From positions 1-24,845 of the forward strand of contig CBFFRP010000392.1 of NCBI GenBank assembly GCA_965644295.1: a DNA stretch of 24,845 nt. The letters run 5' to 3'. Below are positions 13 to 23,412 of the stretch, one piece after another; positions within the stretch are counted from its first letter, which is position 1, and the number at the start of each line of letters is the position of its first letter. Origin of the DNA: Paraphysomonas bandaiensis. Taxonomy: Eukaryota; Protista; Chrysophyceae. The notes below the pieces were generated by a model. It did not search any database. It was not told the origin of the DNA and worked only from the letters and a program-made list of their open reading frames with translations. Both the position numbers and the translations under genes were made by a program.

Positions 13-3000
13 GTGAAATTAAAATTGAGGTTTGAAAGAGAAGACTCCAAGGGAGAGTTCGTGTTATATGAAGGGGATTTCATTGTTGCTGATATGGGTA
101 GCAACGATATTATCATTGGACTTCCGGCTATCGTTAAGGATCTATGGGATTATTTTCTATTTATGCTTAAAGGAAGGACTATTGAACGAATTGAATCAGA
201 AGTAAGTTTTATTAAAAGGCGTGAGGACGATGTTACCGAGGATGATTTGTTGTTGAATGCGGTTGAAGAATTATTGCAGCCGTGGTGTGACAGTAGTAGG
301 GAGGTAGCACCTGAAGAATTGGATGTTCCGGACCCTTCGCAGTTCGGATTTGCCTCAAGTTTTCTTGGAAAAACTAGAGGGAAGCTTTGAGCGAGTTCGA
401 GGATATGTTTGGTGAACACGTGTCTCCAGAGTTCTCAGCAGCGCGACCGGTGCTGGAGTTATTGAGGACTAAGGGAGTAGAGGTATTTGTTCCAGAGCGG
501 TGGGAAGGTATAAAAGGAGTGGATCCGTTGAACATCAAGTTCGCTGAGAATTTGCCTCCTAGGATTAAGCCGAAGGCAAGACCCGTAAATCCTAGATTAT
601 ATGAGGATGCGGAGAAGGAGTTCAGGAGACTGTGTGGTTACATCTATGTTCCTAGTAGGTCGCTATGGGCTTCTTGTTTGGTGATCGCGCCAAAAGCCAC
701 GAAACCTTTTATTAGGATTTGTGGGGATTACGTGCAAATCAACAAGTACATTCCAAGTCCACACTATACAGTTCCTAATGTAAGACATGAGTTGGATCGT
801 ATTATTGGCTATAAGATATTTATGGACATTGACCTCACGAATGCGTTCCATCAGATCAGGTTGCATGAGAACACATCTGAAAAATTGTCAGTTCAAACAC
901 CGTGGGGCCAATTTCAGCCTTTATTCCTTCCGGAGGGAGTGTCTCCAGGGATTAGTGTGTTGCAAGAAGCGGTAGTCAAATTGTTTGGAGATCTGGAATG
1001 GGCGCTGTGTATATTTGATAATGTTCTGTTATTGGCACATGATTTTGATGATGCGTATAAGAAGCTGGAGATTTTCCTGGATAGATGCATTGAACATGGA
1101 GTTGTGTTGAAATTTGCAAAGACCTGGTTAGGATTTAGGGAGATCAAGTTTTTTGGCTATTTAGTGAGGCACAATAGTTTCGAGCTCACGGACGATAGGA
1201 AAGAGGCTTTATTGAAGATTCCTTTTCCAGAGAATGGAAATAGATGTAAGAAGATTAGATCTTTGTTGGGTCTGGGAGTATTCTTTGCTCCATTTGTTCA
1301 GAATTACTCAGATTTGGTTAAACATCTTACGGATATGACTAAGAGTAGTTTTAATTGGGAAGAAACGACATGGCAGCACGATTATAGGCAGGAGTTTGAA
1401 AACTATAAGAGTGGTTTGCAACAGTCTTGTGCTTTGTTTTATCCGAATTATGATCTTGAGTGGACACTTAGGACAGATGCCAGTGACTATGGAGTGGACT
1501 GTTGAGGGAACTGGGTCTAGTCCGATTCAACAGCAAACTATTGCTATCTGTTCCAAGAAATTGTCAGAGCAAGCCTTGAAGTGGTGTACTATTGAGAAGG
1601 AGGGTTTTGGTATATTCTATTCAGTCAAGAAATTTTCGTTTTATCTGAGAGGAAAGAAATTTACAATCGAGACGGACCACAACAACCTTGTGTGGATGGA
1701 GGCATCAGAAGTTGCGAAGATAATTCGATGGAGAATTTATTTGCAGGATTTTGACTTTTTGATTCGTCATATCCCAGGGAAGAACAATGTGGTTGCGGAT
1801 TGCTTGTCAAGATTGCTGTATTTGTCCGGATTTGTGGACGAAAGTGACGATTTCGACTCAGATGAAGTGAACTTCGTGACACTGCATAACATCTTTGAAA
1901 AAGACGATTTTGAGGACGAAGTGCAGGAGATCGCGCCACCTACGGAGGAGCAGAGGATAGATTATCATCAGGCTATCAAGGAGGTTCACAACGCGCAAGT
2001 AGGACACTGGGGTGCGAAAGAGACGTGGAAGCGTCTGTGTAAGCAATTTCCGGGACACGGCGTGCCTTTCAAGGTGGTTGCAGACTTCGTGGACGAATGT
2101 ATCAACTGTCAGAAGAATAGGCGAGAGCTGAAGCAGCGATTGATTCCTATCACTAGACATTTAAAACCGCCTCATTCCAGGAGTGCTTTGGGAATTGACG
2201 CGGTTGCTATTACACCTGTTTCTAAATCTGGTTACACGCATATTGTGGTCATGGTTAATTTGTTTACGAAATTGGTGTACCTATATGCGGTGAAAGGAAT
2301 GACAGCTATCAATTTAGCTACAGCAGTGTGGAAGTGCTGGTGTACATACGGGCTCACGGATATGATTATATCAGATATGGGTCCTGATCTCAAATCAGAA
2401 CTTTTCGCAGAACTGGTTAAGTTGTCAGGACTTCGTCATGTTTTTAGTATTGCCAACAGGCATGTCAATGGATGTGAGCGTATTATTAAGGAAGTGGTTC
2501 GTCACATCCGTGCTATTTGTTTTGACAAGCGAATCGAGGCTGATGCTGTTTTGGAGGACGAACTGTTACTTGCCACTATCATGTTCATTCTGAATACCCA
2601 CGAGAGTAGTGAGACGGGGTATTCTGCGTTCGAACTGACGTTTGGGTCCCAGGATTCTATCTATAAGAATCTTTTGGCTGCCCAGGGGAGAGACAATGAT
2701 CCGTCTCATCAGCTGTTGAAAAGGCTGAACGATTACTTAGCTCTAGTTCGCCAGATATCAGCAGATTACCAGAAGTCTCTAGTTGAGAAACGAGCTGAAG
2801 CGGGTTTGGATCCTGCCAAACAAAACCAGTATTGTCCAGGCGATTTTGTTATGTTCGACGCTGGTGCTAAACCACATCCGAAATTATCCTCGAGGATGAA
2901 GGGTCCTTTCGAAGTGGTACGGCAATACAAGAATGATGTTCAAATTCGAAACCTTCTACCGGGGGAATTCGGGAATACTCTGTCTCTGATCTTGAGCCAT

Positions 3001-3588
3001 TTTTCGGAGATAAGGAATCGGCTATTGAAGCGGCGATGCGAGACCATGAACAATTTAAGGTGGAGGAGATTCTTTCATATACGGGAGATTCACGAACCAA
3101 ATCTACGATGGTCTTCAAAGGTGAAGTATGCGGACGGCGATATCTTGGACATTCCATGGACACCGGATATTCAGTGTGAGGCATATTATGATTTCTGTGA
3201 GTCTAGGCCTTACTTGCGGCACCTCGCATACGACTCGTTTACTGCGAAGCGTTTTATTTCTTCAATGAGGAAAGAGAATATCACAACAGTGTCGGTTGGA
3301 GATACTGTCTATGTTGATCTCAGGTTCTACGGTGACCTGTGGTACGAGAGTCTTGGTTTACCGGATTATGCCACGGCCGCGTATGTCATGGAATTCACGT
3401 ACACCCATTGGTATCACAAGAATTCCAAACGCAAGATTAGCGCCCGTTTTAATCTCAACGGTTCCAACTATGCCTTCGACAACTATTTGGTCTATTGTTG
3501 GGGGTCCCAGAAGGATTTTGACCCTGCTCGCATGATTTTGGTTGATGCGTCGCTCGCTGCGGCTTATCCCAAAATTATTCAGGAGTAG
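13..3588 (+). pseudogene. pol: Gypsy pol polyprotein (protease tail, RT, RNase H, integrase, chromodomain, C-terminal extension) with frame disruptions
   Basis: RT motifs RICGDY, DLTNAFHQI, FQPLFLPEG, IFDN, IKFFG. RNase H motifs TDASDYG, IEKEG, ETDHNNL, NVVADCLSR. Integrase H..GHWG..CINC, GID/SDMG/NGCER and GPF. Breaks at ~380, ~1497 (with apparent loss of the strand after TDASDYGV), ~2958 and ~3119. Confidence 0.93.
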
Positions 3589-3619: not shown

Positions 3620-3941
3620 TGTAAAGCCGTGGGCTTTTATAACGCCCTTGGTAGTTTTATATGATGATATATATTGGTATAATAGGCGGTTATAGTATAT
3701 GGAGAAGGAATGAACAAGTTTTATAAGTAGTTGATAGATTGAATTATTAGAGTGATCTAAAGGGAACGAAACAAGACTTACTAACCATCATGGACACGAC
3801 TTCTGTATTTCCTACGAGCTTTTCGACGGGGATGAGTAATACCAGCGTGATTAGGAGGAGGCATACGGCAGCGATTGGGGTTAGGAAGCAGTGATACACA
3901 CAATTTCGTGGGCCTACGTGATTGCCACCCGTTGGTTTACA
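3620..3941 (+). repeat. Putative 3' LTR of gypsy element
   Basis: Starts TGTAAA directly after the PPT. The complementary TTTACA ends at 3941. No second LTR is in the window to confirm the end. Confidence 0.55.
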
Positions 3942-4809
3942 CCTATATCCATATAGCAGTCGGTGTAACAGCGATTTGAGTTAGGAAACATTGATTGGTA
4001 CCGCATGTGCGATATTCGTAGTCCATTCATCATTATGAGAAGCTTTCTGATGGTTTTGAACAGCTCTATGTGCTTGCTCATCGTTCCGGACTATGATATA
4101 CGATTATTTTCCCATTATCACACACCATCGATTTTCTGTGGAATGGGGAGGAATTCGTAGGGTGCCATTGGGCACAGATGCATAGGTGTTCTAGGCATGC
4201 TGATGGTAAAATTTCCCTATGTATAGATGGCTAGGTCTGTTGTACACTGGTTCGCAGGAATGGCGATGTTTAACGGGTTGAAATGTGATTGCAGTTGTCA
4301 TGAAATGTGCTTGCAATTTTTGTGGATTCGAAGATTGTCATTTTTGGGTGTTTGTGGCTCGAAAATCGGCGATTTTCTGCAATTCTCAAAAATTGGGGAT
4401 TTTTGGGTTTTTTGGGACTCAAAAATCGGAGGTTTTTGGAAAAGACCTATTTAGGCGTATTTCAGGGGGTTTTTGACTATAAACGATGTAGGATATGAAT
4501 CGTATGTAGTGTAGTACATGTTTGAGCATATTGTACGGTTGTGGTTGCATTCAATGTCCTGTGTATGAGGAGGAGTCTTTAGACTAGGGGTCTGTCTTTC
4601 GTTTTGCTTGTAACTTTAGTTTTTAATAATAATTCTCTATGAAATTAACATAGTTGGTTGACTGATCTGTCTATTGGGAGCTTTAGATTGCAGGATACAG
4701 GGGAGCTTGTGTTTCTGGCTGTTGGTTTCTTAAAGAGTTATTATTATAGCTTTCTGTTTTGTTGTTTCGATAAACAACCATTTCATATCTTTTCAGTGAT
4801 CTTCGACTT

Positions 4810-5141
4810 GTTGTCTATAGGCAAAGGCCTGCGTTTCATTTGGGATGTTAAAGCCTATGACACAGAGCATTATTTTATTCTGCCTATAGATAATTGCCTG
4901 CGTTTCATTTGGGATGTTAAAGCCTATGACACAGAGCATTTTATGTTGTCTATAGGCAAAGGCCTGCGTTTCATTTGGGATGTTAAAGCCTATGACACAG
5001 AGCATTATTTTATTCTGCCTATAGATAATTGCCTGCGTTTCATTTGGGATGTTAAAGCCTATGACACAGAGCATTTTATGTTGTCTATAGGCAAAGGCCT
5101 GCGTTTCATTTGGGATGTTAAAGCCTATGACACAGAGCATT
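4810..5141. repeat. Tandem array: five 45 bp cores with alternating 24/21 bp linkers
   Basis: Core GCCTGCGTTTCATTTGGGATGTTAAAGCCTATGACACAGAGCATT at 4827, 4896, 4962, 5031 and 5097 (periods 69, 66, 69, 66). Confidence 0.97.
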
Positions 5142-5268
5142 ACAAGGGGGGGGTTGTGACTCAGTCGAGCAATAGCCGATTGATGTCACGGTATTTAATA
5201 TTTATTTATAGGTTCATAATCTTATGGACGATAAGCAGATCAGGCGTTGGACTGAACATAGGAGGGTG

Positions 5269-5664
5269 TGTCGTCATCCCCGTATAGGACATTGACTGTC
5301 GTTGGATTGTGAGCTTGGCTTGGTAGTATACAGCAGTATACTGCACTATACAGTGGGTGCCTGGTATACAGGATATATACAGTGTAGTGAAGACAGCCAG
5401 CTACAGTATACAGTAGAGTAACGGTATACCATTATACGGTGTATGATGACAATACTATGTAGGATATGTACAGTCCAATATGTACAGTGGATTGTTGGTA
5501 TAGAGTAAGGGCATATATATGCCCAAGGTGTGAGCTGTAGGTGTAGTCTGTGATAGAAGATAGATTAGAATGCTAGTCATTATTATCACAGATAACCTCT
5601 GATAAAACAAGTTAATAACACTATCGTTTACTATCAACTTGTGGCTTGTTATTGCCTTACAACA
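5269..5664 (+). repeat. 3' LTR (396 bp, diverged family member)
   Basis: TGTCG...CAACA preceded by GAACATAGGAGGGTG. Homologous to 18695-19076 and 23031-23412 with several indels. Confidence 0.92.
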
Positions 5665-6178
5665 TGAGATCTTATGATTTTGGTGTGAAATATCTTCTTC
5701 CTCTTATCATTGCAATTGTCTAACAATTCGTGGGAATCATTTGTTGGAATCTAACAAATTTCATAAATCTAAGACCCTCCCCTTAGTTTTCATTTATTAA
5801 AACTTTTATACACAAAAATTCCACCGTAGGGAAATGGACTGTAGTCTAACGTATTCCAATATCATACATTAGAAAATTTCATGGGTGAACATCGGCAACG
5901 GCATCTATATTACAAAAACAGGGTGTTCTAAGACAAATCCTGTTTTAGTAAACGGTCGAAATCGTGCTAATTGTAAACCACAATCTACATTATTCTATTA
6001 TACAGTTCAGTACCGTATTATACAGCTCAGTATTGTGTAGTACAGTGTATTTATAGGCTAGTGCTTGTTATCGCCATATCTTGGTGTCTAAAAGTGTCCA
6101 TAACTATAGCGGTTAACACACTATCAGTATTAAGCAATTTGAGCTATTTCACATTTCAATTGAATTACTATCATCGTG

Positions 6179-7119
6179 ATGGAAGACTTGTGCTTGGTAG
6201 TGCAAGGTCAGCAGGAACGAAATATTCTAAATTCTTCAATGAGAGACTATTTGAGCCGCTGCCGAACTATGACCAGACTCATCAATGACATTGAGGGGTT
6301 ACGTGAAGTGGCTCTTGATATCGATGAGACTGGAGTGGCAAGGAAACATACTGGACTAGCCAAAGATGTTCTCAAACTGAAACTTCCAATGGCAGTACAA
6401 ACAGCTAAACTCTTGTTCGCAAAAATTTCTGTAGACACCACATTACCAAAGAAGCGGAAACACGGTGGGCAAGACCCAGTGGAGAACCTTGATGATCCTG
6501 CAGTGGTTGACACTCACAACCCTGCTGCAAATAAAGTAACGGTTAGTGCACAGACTTATCAAAACTATAAGTCAGCCCTTAAATGGTGGCACTGTTACGA
6601 TCTTCCTGACATGGACAAAATAGGATCACCATGGCCAGGTGGAATGGACGAAGCCCTAAAAAAATCTATATCAAGTTACAAACGAGACATAGCAAGCAAG
6701 AAAAGAGCCGGCATTATGCGACAGAAAGAAGGAAAGGAGGCCTACAATCTCAATGGCTACATCGAAATTAATAAGGCTTTCGCTAGGATGAGGCCCACTG
6801 GAAAGCAACGAACTTGGGATGAAGGAGTATTTGCCAGTCTGTTCACAGTGTTATCTGTTTCAACTATTGGAAGGAGTGATAACGTTGATGATTGTTTGCT
6901 CTCCAACTTTGGATGGAGAAACGATGCACTAACAGTGGTGTTTGGAACTACCAAATCCGACCAGACAGGAGAAACAACTTCTGATATAGGGACAACGAAC
7001 AAGAAGTGTACGATTCTGCCTACACTAAGTTGCTACAGGATTTGTACGATGTCTACCCTAAACGACCCGCTACAATTAATATAAATACCATAGCCAACAA
7101 AATAAAAATTAGAAGGTAA
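6179..7119 (+). pseudogene. Crypton-type tyrosine recombinase N-terminal part, fused out of frame to its extreme C-terminus
   Basis: YQNYKSALKWWH, KEGK, VLSVSTIGRSDNV (first catalytic Arg) and W.NDAL.V.F..TKSDQTGE resemble Crypton recombinases as I recall them. From ~6988 the DNA equals the last ~130 nt of the ORF ending at 12205. Confidence 0.78.
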
Positions 7120-7166
7120 GATATCAGCAAGCTTCAATTAATTTGAAAAAAGTAATAATAATCAAA

Positions 7167-8068
7167 CAATAATAAAAGCTGCACAACACACACATACACA
7201 CCTTACACTCTCAGCGTAAACACAATGCTCTTCACTGTAGTTATACACTCATGCCTCAGGATCATACGGACTATGCATCAGAGGCTCCTCTTATATATTG
7301 CTGGATATATAATGCCATTAATAATACACAGCACACTGCATCGTACTATACTTACGTCATTGTGACCTCAAATGACAGAATGAATGGTATATCATATATA
7401 TAATATATTTTCAGGGATGCTGCAGTAGTTCCGTACTGTAAGCTACAGTTAGCACCTCCACATATGATTATCTCACAATGGGGACATCATACCATCATTC
7501 ACACCTCATCAATCAATAATAAAGCAACACAATACACACATACACACCTTACACTCTCAGCGTAAACACAATGCTCTTCACTGTAGTTATACACTCATGC
7601 CTCAGGATCATACGGACTATGCATCAGAGGCTCCTCTTATATATTGCTGGATATATAATGCCATTAATAATACACAGCACACTGTATCGTACTATACTTA
7701 CTTCATTGTGACCTCAAATGACAGAATGAATGGTATATCATATATATAATATATTTTCAGGGATGCTGCAGTAGTTCCGTACTGTAAGCTACAGTTAGCA
7801 CCTCCACATATGATCATCTCACAATGGGGACATCATACCATCATTCACACCTCATCAATCAATAATAAAGCAACACAATACACACATACACACCTTACAC
7901 TCTCAGCGTAAACACAATGCTCTTCACTGTAGTTATACACTCATGCCTCAGGATCATACGGACTATGCATCAGAGGCTCCTCTTATATATTGCTGGATAT
8001 ATAATGCCATTAATAATACACAGCACACTGCATCGTACTATACTTACGTCATTGTGACCTTAAATGAC
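7167..8068. repeat. 346 bp tandem repeat, ~2.6 units
   Basis: CCTTACACTCTCAGCGTAAAC at 7201, 7547 and 7893. Confidence 0.97.
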
Positions 8069-9600
8069 CACATGGCACTGTATCGTATTCTACTTACTTC
8101 ACTGTGAGCTTAAATGACAGGATGACGTATATCGTATTCATATATAGATATGGTTCTATAACAGCTAGATTCTATATATATATATACATATGGTTCATCC
8201 TGCACTGTACAATCCCATACACTACTGCTGTACTGTACAATCCTACCAGACAAGTCCAGAAAAACGAGAAAAGTTCTCACTCATCATCACCACTCACTAT
8301 TCCCCACACCCTCAGATTAAAGGATGGCGGCAATTTATTTTTTTCTCCCATTTTTACTATTTTTACTCATTTTACCCTAAAAATACAGCATTCTATTGAG
8401 AAAAGGGTAGATGTAAAAAAGGTAATTTATTGCATACGGTTTACCCCAATAATGGAGCTCTATCTGTGGAAGAGATAAAAGACGTGATAGACACATTAAA
8501 AGATAGCAACAAATACAAGACAATATCGACATAAGACAGCAATGTCACAACCCTTTAAAGGAAAGATAAGACGAGGTTTATTCGTGGCATCATTAAGTGG
8601 GTCATTCCAGTCGTTATTAAGCATCTTATTGAGCAAGCAGGCGATCTGGTAAGCATGAAGAAGAAGAAGAGCAGTAGAAGGCCAAAAGTTGACTTAAATG
8701 TATGGAGTCTATATATATTTATACTCATAGAGCGTATAACTTTTATCTTTTCTATAGTGAGAGTATGAAAATATGTACAGAGTTGAAACACATTGACACA
8801 CGCTCACACGTCACACCCTTAATATGCATATCACCAGTATTCATCACAGTGAGCCCTTGAGCCGAGTGCACCTTCATAGACATCGTAAAAACATATAAAT
8901 CATAAGTATATATACTGTGACAGCAGGTAACCCAAGAAATAATAATAAGCTTGTAATTTATTATTGCAATACAGATATATATTATGTATACTCCAGGTGT
9001 TAGAACATGACAAGTACATTGTATACTATATGCACGCTGTATATTTAGCTATATTTTGACATTTATACGCATGTTTATACGTATGGAGACTCTTATTTTA
9101 CTAATTATACCCCTATCGCAAGCACTTACATGCACCACCCCAGCAGCTCCCAGAGGGCACCCAAGGCATCTGGTACACTCTATACTATCTATGTCTATAA
9201 TGTTTTTATAGCCTTGAAATTTCATCAATATGTGTTTTTATAACATGTTAATATACTCTATTTCTAGCTATACCTCAGAATCCCTTCAGCGTCTTTCAAC
9301 TACTTCTCCCAGTGCCCTGATAAACTTGTATTACAATTCATTATTTCCCCGATATGGAATTGGTTATAGTCAAATATGTTTGCACGACACACTACATACT
9401 ATATACACACTATAAATCTATAGATATTAAAGCTACCGGAAACAGCCCTTCAACACCCCCAAGCGATGATTCAAACATTCACTTAATTACCGAAATAATA
9501 ATGATAGGAAAGATTGGCTAACTAAAATTATATATATATTCAAACTAATCTAAGCAAATTCATGGAGATGAAACCTAAACATTATCAGATTCAAGCATTG

Positions 9601-10680
9601 TCAAAACATGAAATTGTATGTACCAACCGTTCCTTTTTTCCGTGCATTAAGAATAAAGTGCACCAACATAGACGTAGTAATCATCGCTTTATCCACCTTT
9701 GCGGCTAGGCGAATGTTGTCAGGGTCTGTCTTCGATTTATTAGTATACTCAATTGGCAAAGGACTCAATCCTGCGGCGATTTTTTGGCGTACATCGTCGT
9801 TGCTAGATTTAGCTATGGCGTCTCTTTCTGATTTGGCCATGGAGAGCTGTAATATTAATTTGAACAAAGTCGGGGCAGCAATAGCATCTTGGGTCTTGCA
9901 GTCCCTCAGGAATGGGGCTACATCTCGAAGGCTAGGATCATTTGACATTTCATCATACGAGCCATATTCAGCCTGGTAGTGTCGACAGATTTCCTCTAGC
10001 TCATTATCAACAGCCTTCATTAAGGTGTTTATACAGTCTATATCATTATATGTAGTACTCGCGCCACCTGTGATATAAATTAAACAAAACCTCAAAGGTT
10101 ATGCTAATAAATAAAATGTATATGCTATATATATGCATATGTGTGGTGATTCTACCGTCAGCTTCACTGGTCATTGCATTACCAGATCCCGCACTCGGGC
10201 TAACATAGGAGGGTGCTGGAGTTCGGACACCCCCTGGCTGGAAACAAAACCCAAACTTGTATCATCTTCGGTCTTGCTAAAGGATAGCAAATTGGCATAT
10301 TTTTGCAAAGAATCTTTATTATTGTCGGTTGTTCCAGCAAAACAGTGTAACCCTCGATCAAATGGAATGAATTCGGCAGCAACAACTTGTCGGCAGGGCC
10401 GCATTTCACTGCATGTTATGTCTCTATAATACTCTGCAACATGCAAAATTTGACCCATTTCTCTACACTTTTTCTTAATATATGCTCTCTTGCTTTCACT
10501 GGACCTTTGACTTCCCAAAGTGACGCCCAGAGCTGCCGCAAGGAAACTGAATAAGTCCGCACAGTGGCAGAACCAGACACCCTTGTGGTTAACGTAGTGG
10601 AGTATGAAGCCACCCAATGAGAGGTAGGGCATATTAGACTGCCTAATATCGAGACTTAAACAGTTCTTAGGTGTTGTCAT
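9601..10680 (-). CDS. Hypothetical protein, probably spliced (intron 10155-10068) with one frameshift near 10230
   Basis: Two long minus-strand ORFs with protein-like composition, separated by an AT-rich GT...CAG segment. The true 3' end is uncertain. Confidence 0.5.
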
Positions 10681-10873
10681 CGCGCCTTATGGTGGCCACT
10701 GGAACATATTTGTTATTTCATGACGTTCGCTTATTCACTGGGAATACTGACCTGATTACACACGGTAGATATTGTCAGTAAGGCACATAGTAGTAATAAG
10801 AGTCCTCTACAAGAATATATATATATACAAGTACTTTTACGCAGCCATACGCTCGATATGGTCGCTAAGAGGG

Positions 10874-10912
10874 ACGTACATTAACGCAGAATCACGTACA
10901 TTAACGCAGAAT
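10874..10912. repeat. Direct duplication of ACGTACATTAACGCAGAAT (period 20)
   Basis: Copies at 10874 and 10894, upstream of the minus-strand gene. Confidence 0.9.
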
Positions 10913-11347
10913 TCTGCAGACCAGAATATCTCCACTGCAACCCCCCCCCTACACACACTCCCATACAAAAAAACAGAATTCATTTTTCTGGACTTGTGTG
11001 GTAGGAATATGTATTGCTCCTATACAATCCTACAGTGATTTAAAAGTAGCATATTTCCCCTATACAGAAACAACAGTCGAATTGTACGTGGATTTTCATA
11101 TGAACCATAAACGAAACATCAAAAAACATGTTACAGTATCACAATAGCACACAGCCAGTACGAGTTTTAGTAAACGGTCGAAATCGTGCTAATTGTAAAC
11201 CACAATCTACATTATTCTATTATACAGTTCAGTATTCTATTATACAGTTCAGTACCGTATTATACAGCTCAGTATTGTGTAGTACAGTGTATTTATAGGC
11301 TAGTGCTGTTATCGCCATAGCTTGGTGTCTAAAAGTGTCCATAACTA

Positions 11348-12205
11348 CTATTCACTGATCCTATTGTGTACGATGCACTCAAAGATAAACCTATTCTATG
11401 CTTTGGTGAGTGTGAGAAGAGTAATATGTACGCTACGAGAGTTCCTGCTTTGATTCTTGTGTCCAGAGAAGTCAGACAGATTAGTGAACAATTTGAAGCT
11501 GAAAGAAATACCTGTCGTAATGACATTCGCGAGTTTAAAGAGACAGTGATGCATCAAATTGATGCAATGCGGACTGGTATGCCACAAGATTTGGTACGTG
11601 TGCTAACAGAGCGATTTGAAGTGAATGGCGTCATTCCATTAAGTCGAAGTGACGTAACGGCTTGTATAAATGAAATTCTCAGTCATCCAGAAGGCAATTT
11701 AATGGTATTAACGAGATGTGTAAAAGAATTAACTAATTCTGGTCGCGTGCAAACTACGGCAGATGATGAAAGAAGCAGCGACAATTCAGGTGAATTAAAA
11801 TCTCGTAATATTCATGTTTGGGAAGGTAGCCCTAATCTACATCGAGTACCTAAAGGATTTAAATTTCCCAGCTATGTAGTAGGTACAATGTGGAATCTAT
11901 GGTTCTTGGGAAACCGGAGAGAGAACATTGGTCCATATAGATTCATTGCACCATCAGTGGATCTAGTAACCAGAGCCTGCAGAAATAACTTTAGCCGTTG
12001 CAAAAAAGTTATGTCAAAACTACTTGACATAGCTATCCACGACAACAAAATCACTCGGGCACAAGATATAACAAGGGACAACGAACAAGAAGTGTACGAT
12101 TCTGCCTACACTAAGTTGCTACAGGATCTGTACGATGTCTACCCTAAACGACCCGCTACAATTAATATAAATACCATAGCCAACAAAATAAAAATTAGAA
12201 GGTAA
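11348..12205 (+). pseudogene. C-terminal part of Crypton-type protein
   Basis: The open frame begins at the deletion junction (11347). HRVPKGFKFPS...MWNLWFLGN...IGPYRFI...DL resembles the conserved C-terminal domain of stramenopile/fungal Cryptons. Confidence 0.75.
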
Positions 12206-12252
12206 GATATCAGCAAGCTTCAATTAATTTGAAAAAAGTAATAATAATCAAA

Positions 12253-13154
12253 CAATAATAAAAGCTGCACAACACACACATACACACCTTACACTCTCAG
12301 CGTAAACACAATGCTCCTCACTGTAGCTATACACTCATGCCTCAGGATCATACGGACTATGCATCAGAGGCTCCTCTTATATATTGCTGGATATATAATG
12401 CCATTAATAATACACAGCACACTGCATCGTACTATACTTACTTCATTGTGACCTCAAATGACAGGATGAATGGTATATCATATATATAATATATGTTCAG
12501 GGATGCTGCAGTAGTTCCGTACTGTAAGCTACAGTTAGCACCTCCACATATGATCATCTCACAATGGGGACATCATACCATCATTCACACCTCATCAATC
12601 AATAATAAAGCAGCACAATACACACATACACACCTTACACTCTCAGCGTAAACACAATGCTCTTCACTGTAGTTATACACTCATGCCTCAGGATCATACG
12701 GACTATGCATCAGAGGCTCCTCTTATATATTGCTGGATATATAATGCCATTAATAATACACAGCACACTGCATCGTACTATACTTACGTCATTGTGACCT
12801 CAAATGACAGGATGAATGGTATATCATATATATAATATATGTTCAGGGATGCTGCAGTAGTTCCGTACTGTAAGCTACAGTTAGCACCTCCACATATGAT
12901 CATCTCACAATGGGGACATCATACCATCATTCACACCTCATCAATCAATAATAAAGCAACACAATACACACATACACACCTTACACTCTCAGCGTAAACA
13001 CAATGCTCCTCACTGTAGCTATACACTCATGCCTCAGGATCATACGGACTATGCATCAGAGGCTCCTCTTATATATTGCTGGATATATATTGCCATCAAT
13101 AATACACAGCACACTGCATCGTACTATACTTACGTCATTGTGACCTTAAATGAC
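12253..13154. repeat. 346 bp tandem repeat, ~2.6 units (second copy)
   Basis: CCTTACACTC at 12287, 12633 and 12979. Confidence 0.97.
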
Positions 13155-13530
13155 CAGATGGCATTGTATCGTATTCTACTTACTTCACTGTGAGGTTAAA
13201 TGACAGGATGAAGTATATCGTATTCATATATAGATATGGCTCTATAACAGCTAGATTCTATATATATATATACATATGGTTCATCCTGCACTGTACAACC
13301 CCATACACTACTGCTATGCTGTACAATCCTATATGTATTGCTCCTATACAATCCTACAGTGATTTAAAAGTAGCATATTTCCCCTATACAGAAACAACAG
13401 TCGAATTGTACGTGGATTTTTATATGAACCATAAACGAAACATCAAAAAACATGTTATCACAATAGCACACAGCCATATTTTGTAACGGCTGAGTAGCAT
13501 ATAAGTACGAGTTTTTGTAATATATACGTA

Positions 13531-13606
13531 GAAAAAAATAAATCGCCATCTGAGGGTGTGGGGAATAGCGAGTGGTGATGATGAGTGAGAACTTTTCTCG
13601 TTTTTC
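13531..13606 (-). repeat. Subterminal remnant related to the left end of the TIR insertion
   Basis: Reverse complement of ~8259-8345 (GAAAAACGAGAAAAGTTCTCACTCATCATCACCACTC...CCCTCAGA...GATGGCG..ATTTATTTTTTTC). It lacks the outer ~18 bp of the TIR. Confidence 0.88.
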
Positions 13607-13644
13607 GAGGTGGGTGGCTGAGGTGTGAGTGTATTTCTAGAACT

Positions 13645-14382
13645 TATGTATGTATGTATGTATGTATGTATGTATGTATGTATGTATGTATGTATGTATG
13701 TATGTATGTATGTATGTATGTATGTATGTATGTATGTATGTATGTATGTATGTATGTATGTATGTATGTATGTATGTATGTATGTATGTATGTATGTATG
13801 TATGTATGTATGTATGTATGTATGTATGTATGTATGTATGTATGTATGTATGTATGTATGTATGTATGTATGTATGTATGTATGTATGTATGTATGTATG
13901 TATGTATGTATGTATGTATGTATGTATGTATGTATGTATGTATGTATGTATGTATGTATGTATGTATGTATGTATGTATGTATGTATGTATGTATGTATG
14001 TATGTATGTATGTATGTATGTATGTATGTATGTATGTATGTATGTATGTATGTATGTATGTATGTATGTATGTATGTATGTATGTATGTATGTATGTATG
14101 TATGTATGTATGTATGTATGTATGTATGTATGTATGTATGTATGTATGTATGTATGTATGTATGTATGTATGTATGTATGTATGTATGTATGTATGTATG
14201 TATGTATGTATGTATGTATGTATGTATGTATGTATGTATGTATGTATGTATGTATGTATGATGTATGTATGTATGTATGTATGTATGTATGTATGTATGT
14301 ATGTATGTATGTATGTATGTATGTATGTATGTATGTATGTATGTATGTATGTATGTATGTATGTATTATGTATGTATGTATG
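13645..14382. repeat. (TATG)n microsatellite, ~740 bp
   Basis: Near-perfect tetranucleotide run with single-base interruptions at ~14261 and ~14366. Confidence 0.99.
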
Positions 14383-14484
14383 TGCATGTTTGAAGCAGAG
14401 AGACTGAAGACGTGCATGAATTTACATCAATTTGTTAGAAATAATAGTAAATAAGCAACTACACTTTTTTGACAGTACTCGTAA

Positions 14485-16424
14485 ATGCAGAATGGTAAGA
14501 TTAATAAGAGTTACTTATTCGCGTATCATTTTTACTTAGAATCAGGAGTTTATGTACCACCTCACTTGAGAGAGAGAGGAGGCCCCCCTTCAGACAGCTC
14601 CCATAGCGAGGGAGCGGATCAGCGAAACAGTCGTGGAGGATATCAGGGTGGATGGGGAAAAGGTTCCCGTGAGGCGTGGGGTGGAGGGGATCAGCAAGAT
14701 CGTGGATATCATGGTCGAGGCTACGAAACTAATTCTCGTTGGAAAACAGGAGGTGATGAAGGTTATGGATCTCGAGTAGGTGTCTATGGTCGCTCAGGGT
14801 ATGGTGGTGGAGGGGGATACCATGGTGGCGGTGGTGGGTATGGTCCAAAGCGGAATTCTTTGGGATTTCATGGCGATGAACGCCCGAACCGGCGGTTGGA
14901 GCAGGAATTATTTGATATTACAGATTCTCAGAGTATAGGCATTAACTTTGACAAGGTATGGAGTTCAGAAATATGGTTGTAGTTTTTGTAATTGAATTAC
15001 AGTACGATGATATTCCGGTGGAAGTGAGCGATGGATGTCCAGAACCAATAGCCGAGTTTTCTGTGGAGTCAATTGGTGAGGGATTGTACAAGAATGTTAC
15101 GTTGTCGAAGTACTTGAAGCCAACACCTGTGCAAAAGTATTCGATACCAATTGGACTTGCTGGTGCAGATATGATGGCTTGTGCCCAGACTGGATCGGGA
15201 AAAACCGCTGGTTTTTTGTTTCCATCAATATCGTCCATGTTAACACATGGGCCACTTATTCTTCCAGGGGGGACTAGCAGCCGCAGTATTTACCCAACAG
15301 CCCTAATTTTGGCACCTACTCGGGAGTTGGCGGGCCAGATCTATGACGAAGCACAGAAGTTTTGTTATTGCACTGGGATCCGTCCGGTTGTGGTTTATGG
15401 CGGCGCCAATATACACAACCAAATGCGTGAGCTTGAGCGTGGTGCCGACATGCTTGTTGCTACGCCAGGAAGATTAGTCGACCTCATCGAGCGAGGACGA
15501 ATTAAGTTAGATGCCATCCGTTTCCTTATTTTAGATGAGGCTGACAGAATGCTGGATATGGGGTTTGAACCTCAAATACGGAGAATTGTTGAGCAGGAAG
15601 GGATGCCAACTGAAAGACAAACGTTTATGTTTTCTGCGACATTCCCCACTGAAATTCAAAGGCTTGCAGCAGACTTCATGAAAGACTATATCTTTCTTGC
15701 TGTAGGAAGAGTTGGAGCTGCATCAAAAGATGTAACTCAGAGTATTGAATGGGTAGAAGAAGCTGATAAAGTAGCGTATACAATCGATTTCCTTAAGAGA
15801 GCCCCCGAAGGATTGGTATTGATTTTTGTTGAGACGAAACGAGGTGCTGATTATTTGGAGGAATGTTTATGTAGAAATAACTTTCCCGCGTCTTCTATAC
15901 ACGGTGACAAATCTCAGCGTGAAAGGGAAGAAGCTCTGCGTCTCTTCAAGACAGGACGCACACCAATTCTTGTTGCAACTGATGTAGCCTCCAGGGGTCT
16001 GGATATTCCGAACGTCACACAAGTTATCAACTTTGACCTTCCTTCTCATATTGACGACTATGTCCATCGCATTGGGCGTACTGGACGTGTGGGTAATGTA
16101 GGTAGCGCACTCTCTATGATGAATGATCGTAATCGCAACATATCGAAAGATTTAGCCGACCTATTTATTGAGAACCAGCAGCTGTGTCCGCATTGGCTGG
16201 AGCGGATGTCTGTGCCGCAATACGGAGGCAAAGGTGGAAGAGGGCGAGGTAGAGGAGGAAATAAGTTTGGCGCCAGAGATATGCGTAAAGATCGTGGAGG
16301 GGGGGGAGGACGAGGTGGAAATTGGGGAGGTCCCCAGAGCCATGTGTACAGCAGTGCTCCGCCTAATGCTGGGCCGCGCTATCCTGATACCAGACATGGA
16401 TTTTCTGACAACAGTGCGTGGTAA
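14485..16424 (+). CDS. DED1: ATP-dependent DEAD-box RNA helicase DED1/DDX3 (exons 14485-14494, 14540-14955, 15003-16424; 615 aa)
   Basis: YVPPHLR, GINFDK|YDDIPVE across a GT-AG intron (14956-15002), [43 protein letters not shown], and RGG-rich termini. The first intron (14495-14539, GTAAGA...TTAG) is inferred. Confidence 0.96.
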
Positions 16425-16910
16425 TTCCCTTTATTTGTTGTTTGGAAGGAAGATTTTTGAAGTAAATTGAGCTTTTACTACTGTTGGACGCATTTATATA
16501 CTTTAGTAGTGGTATTAGCTGCACTTCTTTTTCTATATATATTCATCTGAGTATGAAATTCCTGAACACAGTAAGAACCATCCGTGCAACACGAAGCGAA
16601 TATAATATAGAGTTATTTCACCGCTGATTCTTTAAAGCTATAACAATTTGGTATTATTTCAAGCCGCATTCGTTTGTATAAATGCAGTAAAATTGGGGTA
16701 TTATCAAAGTTTGACATCATATGAGAAGTATTAACTTAACAACGAATAAAGAATTGATCTTAGTAAGTAGTGAATGTCTGATTATTTAGCAATAGGCGTT
16801 GAGACCTTGCATCAATTAATGGCTAGAAGAATGCTAGTCATACTAGTTAGACCACTACCCGTAACTAATCAATACAAACTCTTTTATCCTACTATTTAAC
16901 GCTACGAAAG

Positions 16911-18430
16911 CTGCTTGTGCGTCGCCGCAAGCACCAAGGTGCAACCACTTCCGTTCTTTTTGTGTGATATGAAATTCGCCTTTATCGAGTGTCCGTGGAA
17001 TCACCGGCGCTTTTGATCTGGGGGTCTCCCTTTGGGATGGGTCTCTGTTGGGTTTGGAGGAGGCTCAGTGTGGTATATTAATGCCATAAGTGTTCCGAGT
17101 TCCAGGTGAGTGGGTTGAGAGGTGGATGAGGTGGTGGGGGGTGGTGGTAGATGTGTGGGGGTGCCAAGGTCGAGTACTCTGATAGACCTATGCACGAGAT
17201 GACCATGATGATGATGATGGTCTGGAGGAGACACTCGGACGTCCTCAGCTGCCCTTGGTAGTGTCTGTGTCAGTGCAGGGGGGTACAGGCTGAGGCATAG
17301 AGAGTGTGTGGAAGGAAGATGACGGCAAGGTATCAGAGACGAAGGGAGAGGAGATAGTTTGTCCGGGGGTTTTCTAGGAGGAGGTAGAGTGTACTGTGTG
17401 TGTGTATGACAGTGCAGTGATAATATCGTATCGGCAGTCTGCATCTTATTTTTCGGGAATAAATTGAAGCAAATATTCTCTATATTACTGCAATACAACT
17501 ACGGCTGGAATACACATAATTGTTATCTCAATATTAGAGCCATCTTTGAACAAAAATACACAAAGGATGCCGATACGATGAGTGTGTTGGACAGTGAGAG
17601 AGAGCTGGTGATGTGTCCAACAGTACAGGTAGACAAGTACATGGACATGGTGATGTGTCCAACAGTACAGGTAGACAGGTACATGTACATGGTGATGTGT
17701 CCAACAGTGCAGGCATACAGGTAGGGAGGTAGGACTACCGCCTGTATACCTACAGTACCAGTGTAGTCGTGTGGGTTGGAGCTGTGTGGTGTACTGCAGT
17801 ATATTTGCATCGTCTTGGCATGGTATACATCCTGTAGGGCACAGTAATACAGTAGTCGAGTATACCGTATGCGGAATACAGTGTCTATCCAATGAGATGG
17901 ATGGGCTGTGGGGGTGATAGGTGAACAGGGTGAGGGGGTAGCCTGCTGGGTGGATGGACCACAGACAAACCATGTTGGGTTGGGCTGAGTTGTCGTCAGG
18001 AGACGGCCCTGTTGTGCAGTGGAGAGGTGTCGAGAGGAGACAGGGGTTGCAGAGAAGGTACATGGGGGCCGTTTGCGTGGATCTGCTCGCACGAGTCATG
18101 CTGTAAGTGGTTGTATCCGTAGAGAACCGTGTAGGAGACGAAGGTGTCTCCTTAGGTGATAGCATATGCATGCGGTCAGCGCTGCATTGGTGCAGGCACG
18201 TTGTTTACCTGAGACAGGTGGGTAGGGTGGAAGTTGCAAGGCCACGCAGTGAGGCTTGGAGCATGTACACCATGGTAAGACAAGAGATTTGTCGGAAGGG
18301 TGGTGGTCTACAAAATTCAGCTGTACGGGGGAGTAAGAGGCCGATCGAGGCCTGGACACGCTGATGTGACGCTGCCACGGTCTCAATAGAGACATTGGGC
18401 TTGGAGCTGGCTAGAAGGGTGCAACTTTTT
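16911..18430 (-). mobile_element. Degenerate copy of unidentified repeat family (Pro/Thr-rich ORF ending PKGRPPD)
   Basis: The 3' end matches 24744-24845. Peptide fragments resemble the ORF at 23755-24654. Boundaries are approximate. Confidence 0.45.
17606..17724. repeat. 42 bp tandem repeat, ~2.8 units
   Basis: TGGTGATGTGTCCAACAGT at 17606, 17648 and 17690. Confidence 0.95.
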
Positions 18431-18694
18431 GTTGGACTGTATTTGCAACCGTAGGGCAGAGAATATATGATCTTAGTAATAGTTAAACAGTGTTGTGATT
18501 ATTAGGGCGTCCAGTAATGAACACGATAGAGTGAGAATTATAAACAACATATAAAACATAACTATCATGCACAACGGAATAGTTAGAAGTGTAACTGATA
18601 ATGACGACGTTATGATGACGATCATGTATCTTCAACAGCCAGATACTCTCTCTAATTCAGTTCTTGATATATTTCATTGGACATTATAACTCAC

Positions 18695-19076
18695 TGTTGT
18701 CATCCCCGTATAGGAGGTTGGCTGTCATTGGAGTGAAAGCTTGGTTTGATAGTATACTGCTGTATATTGCACTATACTGTGGATGTATAGTATACAGGAT
18801 ATATACAGTGTAGACAGCCAGCTACAGTAGGGTAACGGTATACCATTATACGGTGTATGATGACAATACGGTGTAGGATATGTACAGTCCAATATGTACA
18901 GTGGATTGGTATAGAGTAAGGGCATATATATGTGCCCAAGCAGTGAGCTGTAGGTGTAGTCTGTGATAGAAGATAGATTAGAATGCTAGTCATTATTATC
19001 ACAGATAACCTCTGATAAAACAAGTTAATAACACTATCATTACTATCAACTTGTGGCTTGTTATTGCCTTACAACA
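18695..19076 (+). repeat. 5' LTR
   Basis: TGTTG...CAACA. By eye it differs from the 3' LTR only at 18941-18942 (CA vs GT). Confidence 0.97.
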
Positions 19077-19099
19077 TTAACTTGTTCTCGAGAGTATGT

Positions 19100-22000
19100 T
19101 ATCTGAAGCATGTCGCTCCAGCAGTTGGTTACGATGACCGGAAGAGCAGAGAGAGTGTATGTATGTATATGGAGTATAGGAGTGCTGTTTTTGAGTTTGA
19201 GGAGACTGTGGAAGAGGAATTGAAAAAGGCTAATTTCACGGGTATTTTGGAGAACACAGATCACCAGCCGTTTGCTCCTGTTGTGGCCTTTTGGAGTGTT
19301 TATCAAATAAGGAGGCCCTTGTGTACAAAATAATGACTATTCGAGTGGTTCAACGGCATAATAGAGGAGTGTAACTAGTGCAAGTAATTCTTTGTTGGGG
19401 ATTTGATTGACTTTTATTATTTCTTCTGGGTTGATTGGTTTATAATGTACCAAGGTGGCATCAATATTCCTCCTGCTCTGGCTTTTCCTGAAACATTAGC
19501 CTCACCTTCATTGAGCGTTGAGAAGTCAATGACAGAGATTGGAATGCGTGGAAAGTGGTGATCTTCGAAACAGGATCTTACGTGTATCATGATTTTTGCG
19601 AATGTCCGGTTGTTGTCTGTGATCGTCAAACATAGAGAACGATCAAGAGGGCGATGTTATAATTAGTGAAGAATATGAGTTAGGTCCAGTGGAGTATCGA
19701 CAGAGTGTATGCAGCGGTTTGTTGGGGTGAATAAGGGTCAGAATCAATGGGAGGATGCATGCATGATGGCCCTTGTGGATTCAGGAGCAAACAGAAGTTG
19801 CTGCTGTGTTGAGGTTGAGAGTATATTTGAGTGTGGGATCGGCATGGAAATTTGGTTGTACGACAGCCGTATATATTATTACGTAAGGCATATACATCAG
19901 TTGGATTATGTTGATATCAGAGCCTTAGTTGAGTGTGAATATAATGTTCAGGAGGGTTCAGTAGATGACTCGAGATATGTATCAGGTGTTGGCAATTTAG
20001 AAAATGGTGCTTGTTGCCAGGAGCTACTGTTAATCCGTCAGTGATAGAGGAGGTGTATTTACATCAGATGTTTCGCATGTTTGCTACTAGCTAAGGGCAA
20101 CCTAATCTGTTGCATCGAACAGTTGTTTCCGGGATTCATATTGTGATAGTTGGACATATGATTGGATTGGATTATATATATATAATATATGTGTGTGGAC
20201 GTGTCAAGAAGATATAAATGGGCGTCGTTGGTAAGAGAACACGAGGAGTCGGAAGATCTATATTGGCTGCAGTTGTGTCAACTCGTGCGTTTCTATAAAT
20301 AGATGGTCATGAGGTTAAGGTACTTAGTCTCGTTGCGAGAATTGTTGTAGAGCCGGCAGCTCCTGAAGCATAGTTTTAAAAGCTTGCGGTATGGTCGATG
20401 CCAACAGTGGATAAAGGAGTACCGGTTGTTCTTGCGCATCAGTTTCATAAAAGCTTTTAGTGGAGAATATACTCCGTATTATTGGGTAGCGGCCGGTGGT
20501 GTCAGTGGTATTGCATCACAGTAGCAGTTAAAATTTTGTGTTTGTACCGCATGCAGAGTTTGAATTTGGGTATATAGGCTCAACTTGTGGTACAAAAATG
20601 GAGCTACACTTGTTTATATATACCGGGTCGAAAGGAAGTGGAAAGTTCTATGTGCGTGGAGATGTGCGGGTGGTGAAGTTAGGAGTTGAAGATTATGTTA
20701 AATGAATGAAAGATTCAGGAGATGGTTCCTACGATTGATGAGAAATGGACCACAGAGTTATAAATCAGTTCAAGGACTTCTGTGGGAACTGTTGAGTTGT
20801 GTGCGGCATCATGGTACTCTAACCATAAATAGATATGTTTGGTCAAGAGTTCAGGAGGGTGTATAGGCAATGGAAACAGTACACATGCTCAGGAGGGTGT
20901 GCTACAGGAGAGTATCATATATGTTACAGGGGTCTGGTCTGGTCTGGTTTGGTTGTGTCGTGTATGTGGCTATATACAAGAGTTTATTTAGAGATCGACA
21001 ACCTATTCAAAAGTATATACACCCGCCGAGTGACAGCAACACGAGGGAAACCCGAGAGTTAAAATTACGGTTAGTTTTATTCAAGGACCTACTAGTAGGT
21101 ATATACAAAGCAGCAGTGCGTTTATTTCGTTTGGTTGGTTTCTGGGATTTGTACTGTTATTATTCGACTGTGTGAAGTTACGATTTCTTTTGAAAGAAAG
21201 AGTTATTATGTTGCGAATGAGGTGTCAGCGTATCAAAGTTTTTTTTTTTTTGGGAGAGACTGAATGATCAGGGTGAAAGTTTTGTCAGTGTGATCAGTTA
21301 TATAGTTCTTCGTCGTTCTTCACTGTTTCAATGAATGCAAAAGAAGAGTTAATTCGGAATAAGTTGAAAAGTGTCTCAAACATATAATAGGGTATATGTT
21401 ACATGGTGAAGTAAAGTACATATATTTTGTTCTGCAATTTGTATGGATTTAGTTGATGATCTTAATAGATTGTGTGAGAATCTTTGAGACAAAGTAATTC
21501 GGATGTTCAGTTGTTCGTTATGAGTTATGTTTAAATATTGTGTTACAATTATAAAGGAAAGGAGTGATTGGTATTTCGACAATGCCGGTTCAGTGTTCGA
21601 CAGCTTGTGAATTCAATGACCATGCAACATTATTTAATTCGTGCAGTGGTACAGTGTGTGTGTTTTCTTTTTTCCTCGAATGACCCGTTGTTATTTATAT
21701 TCCAATGGTTCTTAAAGTTACGCATTCGTGATGGTTGTGTGTGATGTTACGAAGAATATGTGTTCAACAGTATCATATTATCAGGAGTGTTATTGTAGCG
21801 ACGACATTATTTGATCATAAATTTATTGGAGATTTTCCTGACAGCAAGTTTCAATTTCGATGATGGTTATCGGCAGCAGTTGAATGAATGACAAATAATT
21901 GCATCTGCATTCTCCATGTGAGTTTATAATGTTGACATTGTTGGGAGGAGTGTGATACTACTGTATACTCTTTCGAGAGTGTTATTTTCAAACAAATCCA

Positions 22001-22350: not shown

Positions 22351-22440
22351 CAGGGAAGGATGATCTGGTTTGTATTTTGATATACGATGACTAATATATT
22401 GTTTTCAGATTATAAATCAACAATTATGATCGATATCATC

Positions 22441-22902
22441 TTGTCTTCGGACAATTGCCTGCGTATCATTTGGGTTTAAGCCTATGACACAGAGCATTCT
22501 TTTATTCTGTCTATAGACAATTGCCTGCGTTTCATTTGGGATGTTAAAGCCTATGACACAGAGCACTTTTTGTTGTCTATAGGCAAAGGCCTGCGTTTCA
22601 TTTGGGATGTTAAAGCCTATGACACAGAGCATTCTTTTATGTTGTCTATAGACAATTGCCTGCGTTTCATTTGGGATGTTAAAGCCTATGACACAGAGCA
22701 CTTTTTGTTGTCTATATAGGCAAAGGCCTGCGTATCATTTGGGATGTTAAAGCCTATGACACAGAGCATTCTTTTATTCTGTCTATAGACAATTGCCTGC
22801 GTATCATTTGGGATGTTAAAGCCGATGACACAGAGCACTTTTTGTTGTCTATAGGCAAAGGCCTGCGTATCATTTGGGTTTAAGCCTATGACACAGAGCA
22901 TT
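22441..22902. repeat. Tandem array: seven cores with alternating linkers
   Basis: Cores at 22457, 22523, 22589, 22658, 22726, 22795 and 22861. The first and last cores are 3 nt shorter. Confidence 0.97.
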
Positions 22903-23030
22903 ATGGGGGGGCGGTTGTGACTTAGTCGAGCAATAGCCGATTGATGTCACGGTATTTAATATTTATTTATATAGGTTCATATTTTATGGACGATAAGGAG
23001 ATCAGGCGTTGGACTGAACATAGGAGGGTG

Positions 23031-23412
23031 TGTTGTCATCCCCGTATAGGAGGTTGGCTGTCATTGGAGTGAAAGCTTGGTTTGATAGTATACTGCTGTA
23101 TATTGCACTATACTGTGGATGTATAGTATACAGGATATATACAGTGTAGACAGCCAGCTACAGTAGGGTAACGGTATACCATTATACGGTGTATGATGAC
23201 AATACGGTGTAGGATATGTACAGTCCAATATGTACAGTGGATTGGTATAGAGTAAGGGCATATATATGTGCCCAAGGTGTGAGCTGTAGGTGTAGTCTGT
23301 GATAGAAGATAGATTAGAATGCTAGTCATTATTATCACAGATAACCTCTGATAAAACAAGTTAATAACACTATCATTACTATCAACTTGTGGCTTGTTAT
23401 TGCCTTACAACA
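23031..23412 (+). repeat. 3' LTR
   Basis: TGTTG...CAACA after GAACATAGGAGGGTG and followed by the CTCAC TSD. Confidence 0.97.

Follow-up and report, generated by a model that had tools for sequence, protein, structure and literature searches.

In phages with their attP sites, in Tn916-type transposons and in tandem arrays of integrative and conjugative elements, the joined ends of an element form a dyad, and integration at the edge of a resident copy gives rise to arrays. For Cryptons, a circle step has reportedly been a hypothesis since Goodwin in 2003. The subject here is a pair of Crypton units in the chrysophyte Paraphysomonas bandaiensis, found on contig CBFFRP010000392.1 of assembly GCA_965644295.1, the 24,845 nucleotides of which are called the window below. 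Compared with the bacterial tyrosine-integrase elements, this Crypton is eukaryotic, shows no excisionase or accessory gene and has its crossover core off the dyad axis. It shares with CryptonS and CryptonF, as described in PMC3212892, a length of ~3-4 kb, a single tyrosine recombinase gene, the lack of a reverse transcriptase, short end repeats and the occurrence of non-autonomous derivatives. The TATGG end typical of CryptonS is present in a distant family of the same genome, while GTTTT/AAAAC is not among the Crypton terminal repeats of Additional file 1 of PMC3212892; head-to-tail arrays and subterminal co-varying arms, both present in P. bandaiensis, are not mentioned in the accessible part of that paper.

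Two further systems bear on the question. For CryptonF-1_cRei of Chlamydomonas, recombination between donor and target, clean excision and copy gain have been seen in lines, and the element resembles ours in combining a 5-bp donor motif with a target that wobbles at one pyrimidine (CACCG/CAYCG compared with AAAAC/AAAAY), whereas the available portion of its Crypton account has no tandem arrays or arm structure (PMC9977147). The same work leaves open how Cryptons gain copies despite clean excision. The Starship Hephaestus is similar in its tyrosine recombinase, its short micro-homology target and its joined ends as the proposed active form (PMC10104507). A Starship circle has been shown and raises recombinase expression (10.64898/2026.09.21.753150), and some Starships have asymmetric terminal inverted repeats (TIRs) (PMC13465315). 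However, Starships are giant, carry cargo and use a DUF3435 captain, whereas the P. bandaiensis Crypton measures 3.8 kb and is without cargo. In the literature that was searched, which left Repbase reports and subscription journals outside and is to that extent weak evidence, no report of tandem Crypton arrays or subterminal arms was found. The element is of a known kind with an anatomy that, on this weak evidence, would be new, namely frequent exact arrays, mixed arrays and a joint with a co-varying dyad.

The account of the window pair that we somewhat favour is that two deletion derivatives were joined by the recombinase of their family acting in trans, a predicted circle having recombined with the terminal core of another copy. 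The parts of the pair are as follows.

5942..5946, + strand: left core GTTTT, the same in 16/16 left ends of the family, the preceding flank being unrelated
5942..11163, + strand: Crypton unit 1, non-autonomous, with a 20-bp loss near its left end
5960..5971, + strand: subterminal 12-bp arm 13 bases inside the core, a predicted recombinase binding site (in unit 2 at 11182-11193)
6179..6988, + strand: 5′ fragment of the recombinase gene in unit 1, residues 1-270 including R232 and K259, 99% identical to the C69 frame
7161..8068, + strand: 346-bp internal tandem repeats of unit 1 (in unit 2 at 12247-13160)
8241..11006, no strand assigned: nested TIR DNA transposon of 2,766 bp in unit 1
11150..11193, + strand: middle joint, made of the right end of unit 1 (arm deleted), a single core at 11164-11168 and the left end of unit 2
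11164..13510, + strand: Crypton unit 2, non-autonomous, without 185-1676 of the full copy, both ends complete
11345..12205, + strand: 3′ fragment of the recombinase gene in unit 2, about residues 474-760
13493..13504, + strand: right subterminal arm of unit 2, 6 bases inside the core
13511..13524, + strand: right core (13511-13515) and the remaining right hairpin arm, which is the end of a virus-like TIR

The first-pass annotation had placed three junctions at 5942, 11164 and 13511, and a sequence check found positions and cores to read exactly so. It had also reported that removal of the dimer (5942-13510) restores a perfect 17-bp inverted repeat; indeed, 5939-5941 together with 13511-13524 form the exact reverse complement of 5906-5922, from which a 16-nt spacer separates them, and after removal in silico this repeat is unique in the window for spacers up to 60 nt. 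The hairpin rebuilt from both flanks, which now lie 7.57 kb apart, independently confirms the boundaries of the element. At the middle junction, proposed at that stage to preserve an attP-like circle joint, one core is common to both units, the sequence equals that of the predicted circle joint and the architecture is att-like.

The assignment to the Cryptons likewise stands; it rests on a fold search and on invariant catalytic residues of a full copy on contig C69. This copy is an intact 3,843-bp monomer with a 765-residue open frame for a tyrosine recombinase; apart from one stop-to-stop frame of 110 residues, no other exceeds 100 residues on the + strand, which was the one translated, so that the recombinase is the only long frame, as in Cryptons, and there is no reverse transcriptase or DDE transposase. 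The recombinase has 88 homologues at 27-66% identity, and R232, K259, H343, R346 and Y380 are invariant in 49/49 aligned proteins. Its structural model (predicted local distance difference test score 86.8) has a Cre-like fold, with Cre, Tre, XerH and Flp as the best matches in the PDB and Ndc10 lower, and the gene is catalytically complete. No recombinase family of Pfam reached the cut-off for the window fragments, the full protein or any of the 49 proteins, and a profile search of PDB sequences with the recombinase gave no match. The complete loci C69, C114, C263 and C392 begin and finish with GTTTT and have short subterminal arms only; these are the ends of a Crypton, with direct repeats of 4-6 bp, no TIR and no true target duplication.

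Placement within the Cryptons may go either way between CryptonS and CryptonF. The core GTTTT/AAAAC departs from the TATGG termini of CryptonS, and neither the mostly 6-bp repeats of CryptonF, the core here being of 5 bp, nor a GCR1_C or NDC10_II match in Pfam (0/49 proteins) was found. In the Atlas, the whole protein is nearest to a cluster annotated NDC10_II (77%)/GCR1_C (56%) and to unnamed diatom clusters, and the C-terminus alone scores under 0.9; this resemblance may leave a distant link to CryptonF. A Starship is not indicated by an element of 3.8 kb with one gene and no DUF3435 match among the Pfam families shown, DUF3435 clusters ranking low in the Atlas (0.91 vs 0.98).

The two units of the window are unequal. 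Relative to the full copy, unit 1 lacks 1067-2407 and 3810-3836, the latter 27-bp loss removing one inverted arm adjoining the middle core, and residues 271 to about 473, with the catalytic H, R and Y, are missing from both units. The copy number of the 346-bp repeat differs between family members. In the segments covered by both, the units differ at 13 places at least and have no private variant in common; their identity is 98.1% over 1,258 bp compared with 99.9-100% in uniform arrays. Unit 1 has six left-end variants in common with the C310 copy and unit 2 a terminal variant in common with C114. From these sequences the window pair is a mixed pair of two lineages and not a fresh duplicate. 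A recent duplication of one unit was considered and rejected, given the different deletions and the 13 or more differences. Unit 1 looks older, with its nested insertion, three small indels and lost right arm, and unit 2 with its complete ends more likely arrived late. With the arm to the left of the middle core deleted, unit 1 would be immobile by itself, whereas complete ends are retained by unit 2 and by the pair taken as one.

Such joints are not confined to the window. Across the 62.6-Mb genome assembly, a 17-mer of the left end occurs 16 times at 8 loci (control 0), and allowing one mismatch added no left ends; the right-end pattern gave 19 matches, of which four by chance and one diverged relative were dropped (control 12 matches). 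An exact single-core joint is found at 9/16 left ends in the family of the window and at 19/58 left ends in three sister families, the joints of which lie on 11 contigs that include one duplicate. Arrays occur in two more distant families as well. At least nine arrays have non-element DNA on both sides. Right-left joints are also present in the public runs X1, X2 and X18; these joints and the permuted contigs fit circles and arrays equally. In metagenomes, a motif test placed a joint upstream of the gene in 10/80 loci, a permutation test flagged 2/80, and terminal overlap was seen in 4/80. Locus L190 has a joint, the gene and an outer end with flank, and is therefore a chromosomal array. Together, these observations support exact arrays as a habit throughout the family.

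When 16 arrays were compared, 13 were uniform and three mixed, namely the window, C78 with units in the order A-B-A, and C127; this count leaves out C26 and its duplicate C140 (rearranged, with the flank duplicated) and C517 (one permuted unit). The excluded array at C26:59380-68250 (L082-L083), copied as C140, repeats 955 bp of its left flank inside and is joined through a 5-bp micro-homology. C517 (L177) is a 3,385-bp contig that consists of one circularly permuted unit of a sister family, either a collapsed array or a circle. Other insertions lie close to the ends of other Cryptons (C94, C210, C247/C436); in C94, a second core is found 20 bp inside the left end and both flanks fit.

At 13 distinct joints (four genome families and nine metagenome joints, with the register set from the genome families), 12-bp arms located 13 and 6 bases from the core are 85.9% paired; nine shifted registers give 26-41%, and matching an arm with the partner from another joint gives 62.7 ± 2.7%, the observed value being reached in 0/20,000 shuffles. 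The nine metagenome joints alone give 85.2% vs 65.5%, and at several arm positions between two and four kinds of base pair occur. The arms of two more distant families are perfect over 15 and 10 bp. This dyad exists only once right and left ends are joined, and the joint is att-like with co-varying arms.

Three observations on end types and relatives stand beside these counts. The end types of the window family are inverted relative to the gene when compared with the three sister families: its upstream end is the reverse complement of their downstream end, a layout also seen in L207 (1/80 metagenome loci). At L229:1199, a metagenome joint reads AAAAT instead of AAAAC, that is, a target-type base within a right-left joint. 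A distant Crypton family of ~30% identity (C357, C432 and C482; L089-L091) has TATGG ends, lies in (TATG)n, has perfect 15-bp subterminal arms and forms arrays.

In the favoured account, the recombinase would bind the arm inside each end and bring the ends together. A circle would then be excised, with a joint of the form arm-6 bp-GTTT-4 bp-AAAC-6 bp-arm, and would recombine with an AAAA(C/T) in the chromosome by way of its 4-5-bp core. A preferred target would be a resident end, which offers a core and one arm; reinsertion beside the donor or on the sister chromatid would produce uniform arrays, and arrival from another locus mixed arrays such as the window pair. Alternatively, two circles could be joined before insertion, with the same final sequence. 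By a rough reckoning, the chance of hitting a terminal core is ~4 in 10,000 per insertion (~115 terminal cores among ~293,000 sites), and against this chance the three mixed arrays count for joining at ends, as do the insertions near other Cryptons at C94, C210 and C247/C436. Re-integration of an element at its own end, as the first-pass annotation had proposed, is plausible: arrays are frequent family-wide, but 13/16 are uniform and C127 looks like the product of homologous recombination. A broader extension, which we put forward only tentatively, is that a widespread protist Crypton clade has an attP-like dyad, with co-varying 12-bp arms on either side of an off-centre AAAAC core and formed solely by joined ends, and a recombinase that prefers resident Crypton ends, including those of sister families, and so stacks mixed arrays.

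Several points weigh against joining by the recombinase at ends. The arms of the window family itself pair at only 7/12 positions, and the window has lost the arm beside its middle core. Some of the metagenome joints are closely related (L191, L208, L217), and the motif used to select the joints already prescribes the inner TTT/AAAA, so that the inner dyad does not count as independent evidence. A circle was not observed, contigs being unable to separate a circle from an array, and the genome yielded no identical donor for either window unit. The 13 uniform arrays are also explained by local duplication or rolling-circle copying. Finally, in C127 the outer units are mosaics (from left to right, unit 1 passes from lineage P to X and unit 3 from X to mostly P), around a unit 2 that is pure X and 100% identical to the C186 units; this pattern points to homology-driven exchange and not to clean terminal insertion, and unit 2 of C78 may be a mosaic too.

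The C127 mosaics speak for the first rival, in which homologous recombination, through a single crossover or gap repair, brought a circle or array from elsewhere together with a resident monomer, and the recombinase made the circle only. The window units, with over 1.4 kb of 98% identical sequence, offer room for such an exchange. However, insertions at other cores near ends, or into the end of another family, are left unexplained by it, and there is no donor pair to reveal mosaicism in the window; we regard this explanation as possible but rather unlikely. Less probable again is the duplication of one copy in place (unequal sister exchange or rolling-circle copying) followed by deletions, point changes and gene conversion, with no targeting of ends. 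It would account for the uniform arrays, several of which have a deletion or nested insertion unique to the array, such as the 2.5-kb insertion in both C30 units, but it sits badly with window units that have no common private variant, one being like C310 and the other like C114, in a Crypton family that is young (97-100% identity).

That the dimer is an assembly chimera is very improbable. The region is repeat-rich, several other arrays end at contig edges, C517 holds one permuted unit, and the window-specific middle joint was not seen among the matches listed in read contigs of the public runs. Nevertheless, the flanks rebuild one hairpin with a compensatory change relative to its paralogues, the units differ, which argues against collapse or expansion of one unit, right-left joints are present in three runs, and the left junction is spanned by a 469-nt contig of run X1 that matches 5759-5971 without difference, a check on the assembly and not on generality, since X1 may be the assembly's own sample. 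Equally improbable is recognition by the recombinase of the palindrome together with a 10-bp target, which the perfect 17-bp symmetry and the 9/10 match at the window site suggest but which the unrelated outer flanks elsewhere, the 5-7/10 matches at four sites and three empty paralogous hairpins contradict.

The target preference that emerges is simple. When ends were searched across the genome and their flanks tabulated, the core GTTTT was confirmed at 16/16 left ends but the flanks proved unrelated: the bases before the core differ at 7/7 outer left ends and those after it at 5/5 outer right ends. The 9/10 match behind the 10-bp target of the first-pass annotation was real at the window site, but it is not general, the five scorable outer sites giving 9, 7, 7, 6 and 5 of 10 with the window as the 9; a 10-bp target was therefore rejected in favour of the 5-bp core. 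Across four related families, one end type is represented by 26 distinct outer junctions, 17 with AAAAC and 9 with AAAAT, and for the other end type an A lies seven bases out in 23/33 flanks, an A-rich bias. The target is thus best described, from these junctions, as a loose AAAA(C/T), a sequence preference and not a unique site. The specificity is loose, with ~293,000 sites in the genome, a rough estimate from a density taken over only part of the window.

The palindrome belongs to the element that was hit and not to the Crypton target, the first insertion having presumably struck, by chance, a core that lies within the terminal hairpin of this virus-like element. Palindrome targeting was rejected, given the unrelated outer flanks and the empty hairpins. 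The host features are the following.

5665..5941, + strand: left part of a TIR remnant of what we take to be a Polinton/virophage-like element, the insertion host, 85-96% identical to the C79 TIRs
5906..5922, + strand: left arm of the 17-bp inverted repeat, the outer stem of the virus-like terminal hairpin

The left flank has three paralogues in the assembly, two of which are the 257-bp TIRs of a 15.7-kb element at C79 about 4140-19840 (L070-L072, L298, L299), presumably Polinton/virophage-like, with an 8-bp target duplication, an A32-type ATPase and an rve integrase match (E 4e-7) slightly short of the Pfam cut-off. Each C79 TIR terminates in a ~69-nt hairpin; the window hairpin lacks ~20 inner bases of its paralogues, and its two arms, now separated by the insertion, each carry one half of a compensatory change. 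All three paralogous hairpins are empty of a Crypton, and there is no orthologous empty site in the assembly; in runs X2 and X18, the TIR contigs among the matches listed are all of the paralogous type, and the absence of an empty site there is uninformative. The C79 element also has unassigned frames of 488, 436 and 325 residues, and a second type occurs at C66:485109-485300 (L059).

The arrays supply the exact sequence of the joint and predicted binding arms in which compensatory changes have arisen naturally; with these, an intact gene for the recombinase and a target of simple sequence, the circle model becomes directly testable. If joined ends switch on the recombinase, as reported for a Starship circle, each unit inside an array would imitate the active form. 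If the preference for ends is real, the system would be a eukaryotic integrase, compact and encoded by one gene, that prefers a landing pad, and arrays would be the missing route of Crypton copy gain.

Other elements surround the pair. The TIR family nested in unit 1 is abundant, with 28 left-end and 19 right-end matches in the genome, and has a 5-bp target duplication in 12/14 paired copies but not in the window copy; four frames of its longest copy (C67:29466-35036, L297) gave no Pfam match. A further piece of it follows the insertion.

13530..13606, - strand: fragment of a TIR transposon that belongs to the family of 8241-11006, immediately beyond the virus-like TIR end

Upstream, a Gypsy-type pol region (reverse transcriptase, RNase H and integrase) lies at 378-3588, and a repeat resembling a long terminal repeat, with 135-bp internal repeats, occupies about 4650-5664, where it adjoins the start of the virus-like TIR remnant; it recurs at 18695-19077 and 22438-23412. 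Downstream, a ~750-bp (TATG)n microsatellite at 13640-14400 is followed by a DEAD-box helicase gene at 14952-16424, which from its motifs we take to be DDX3/Ded1-like.

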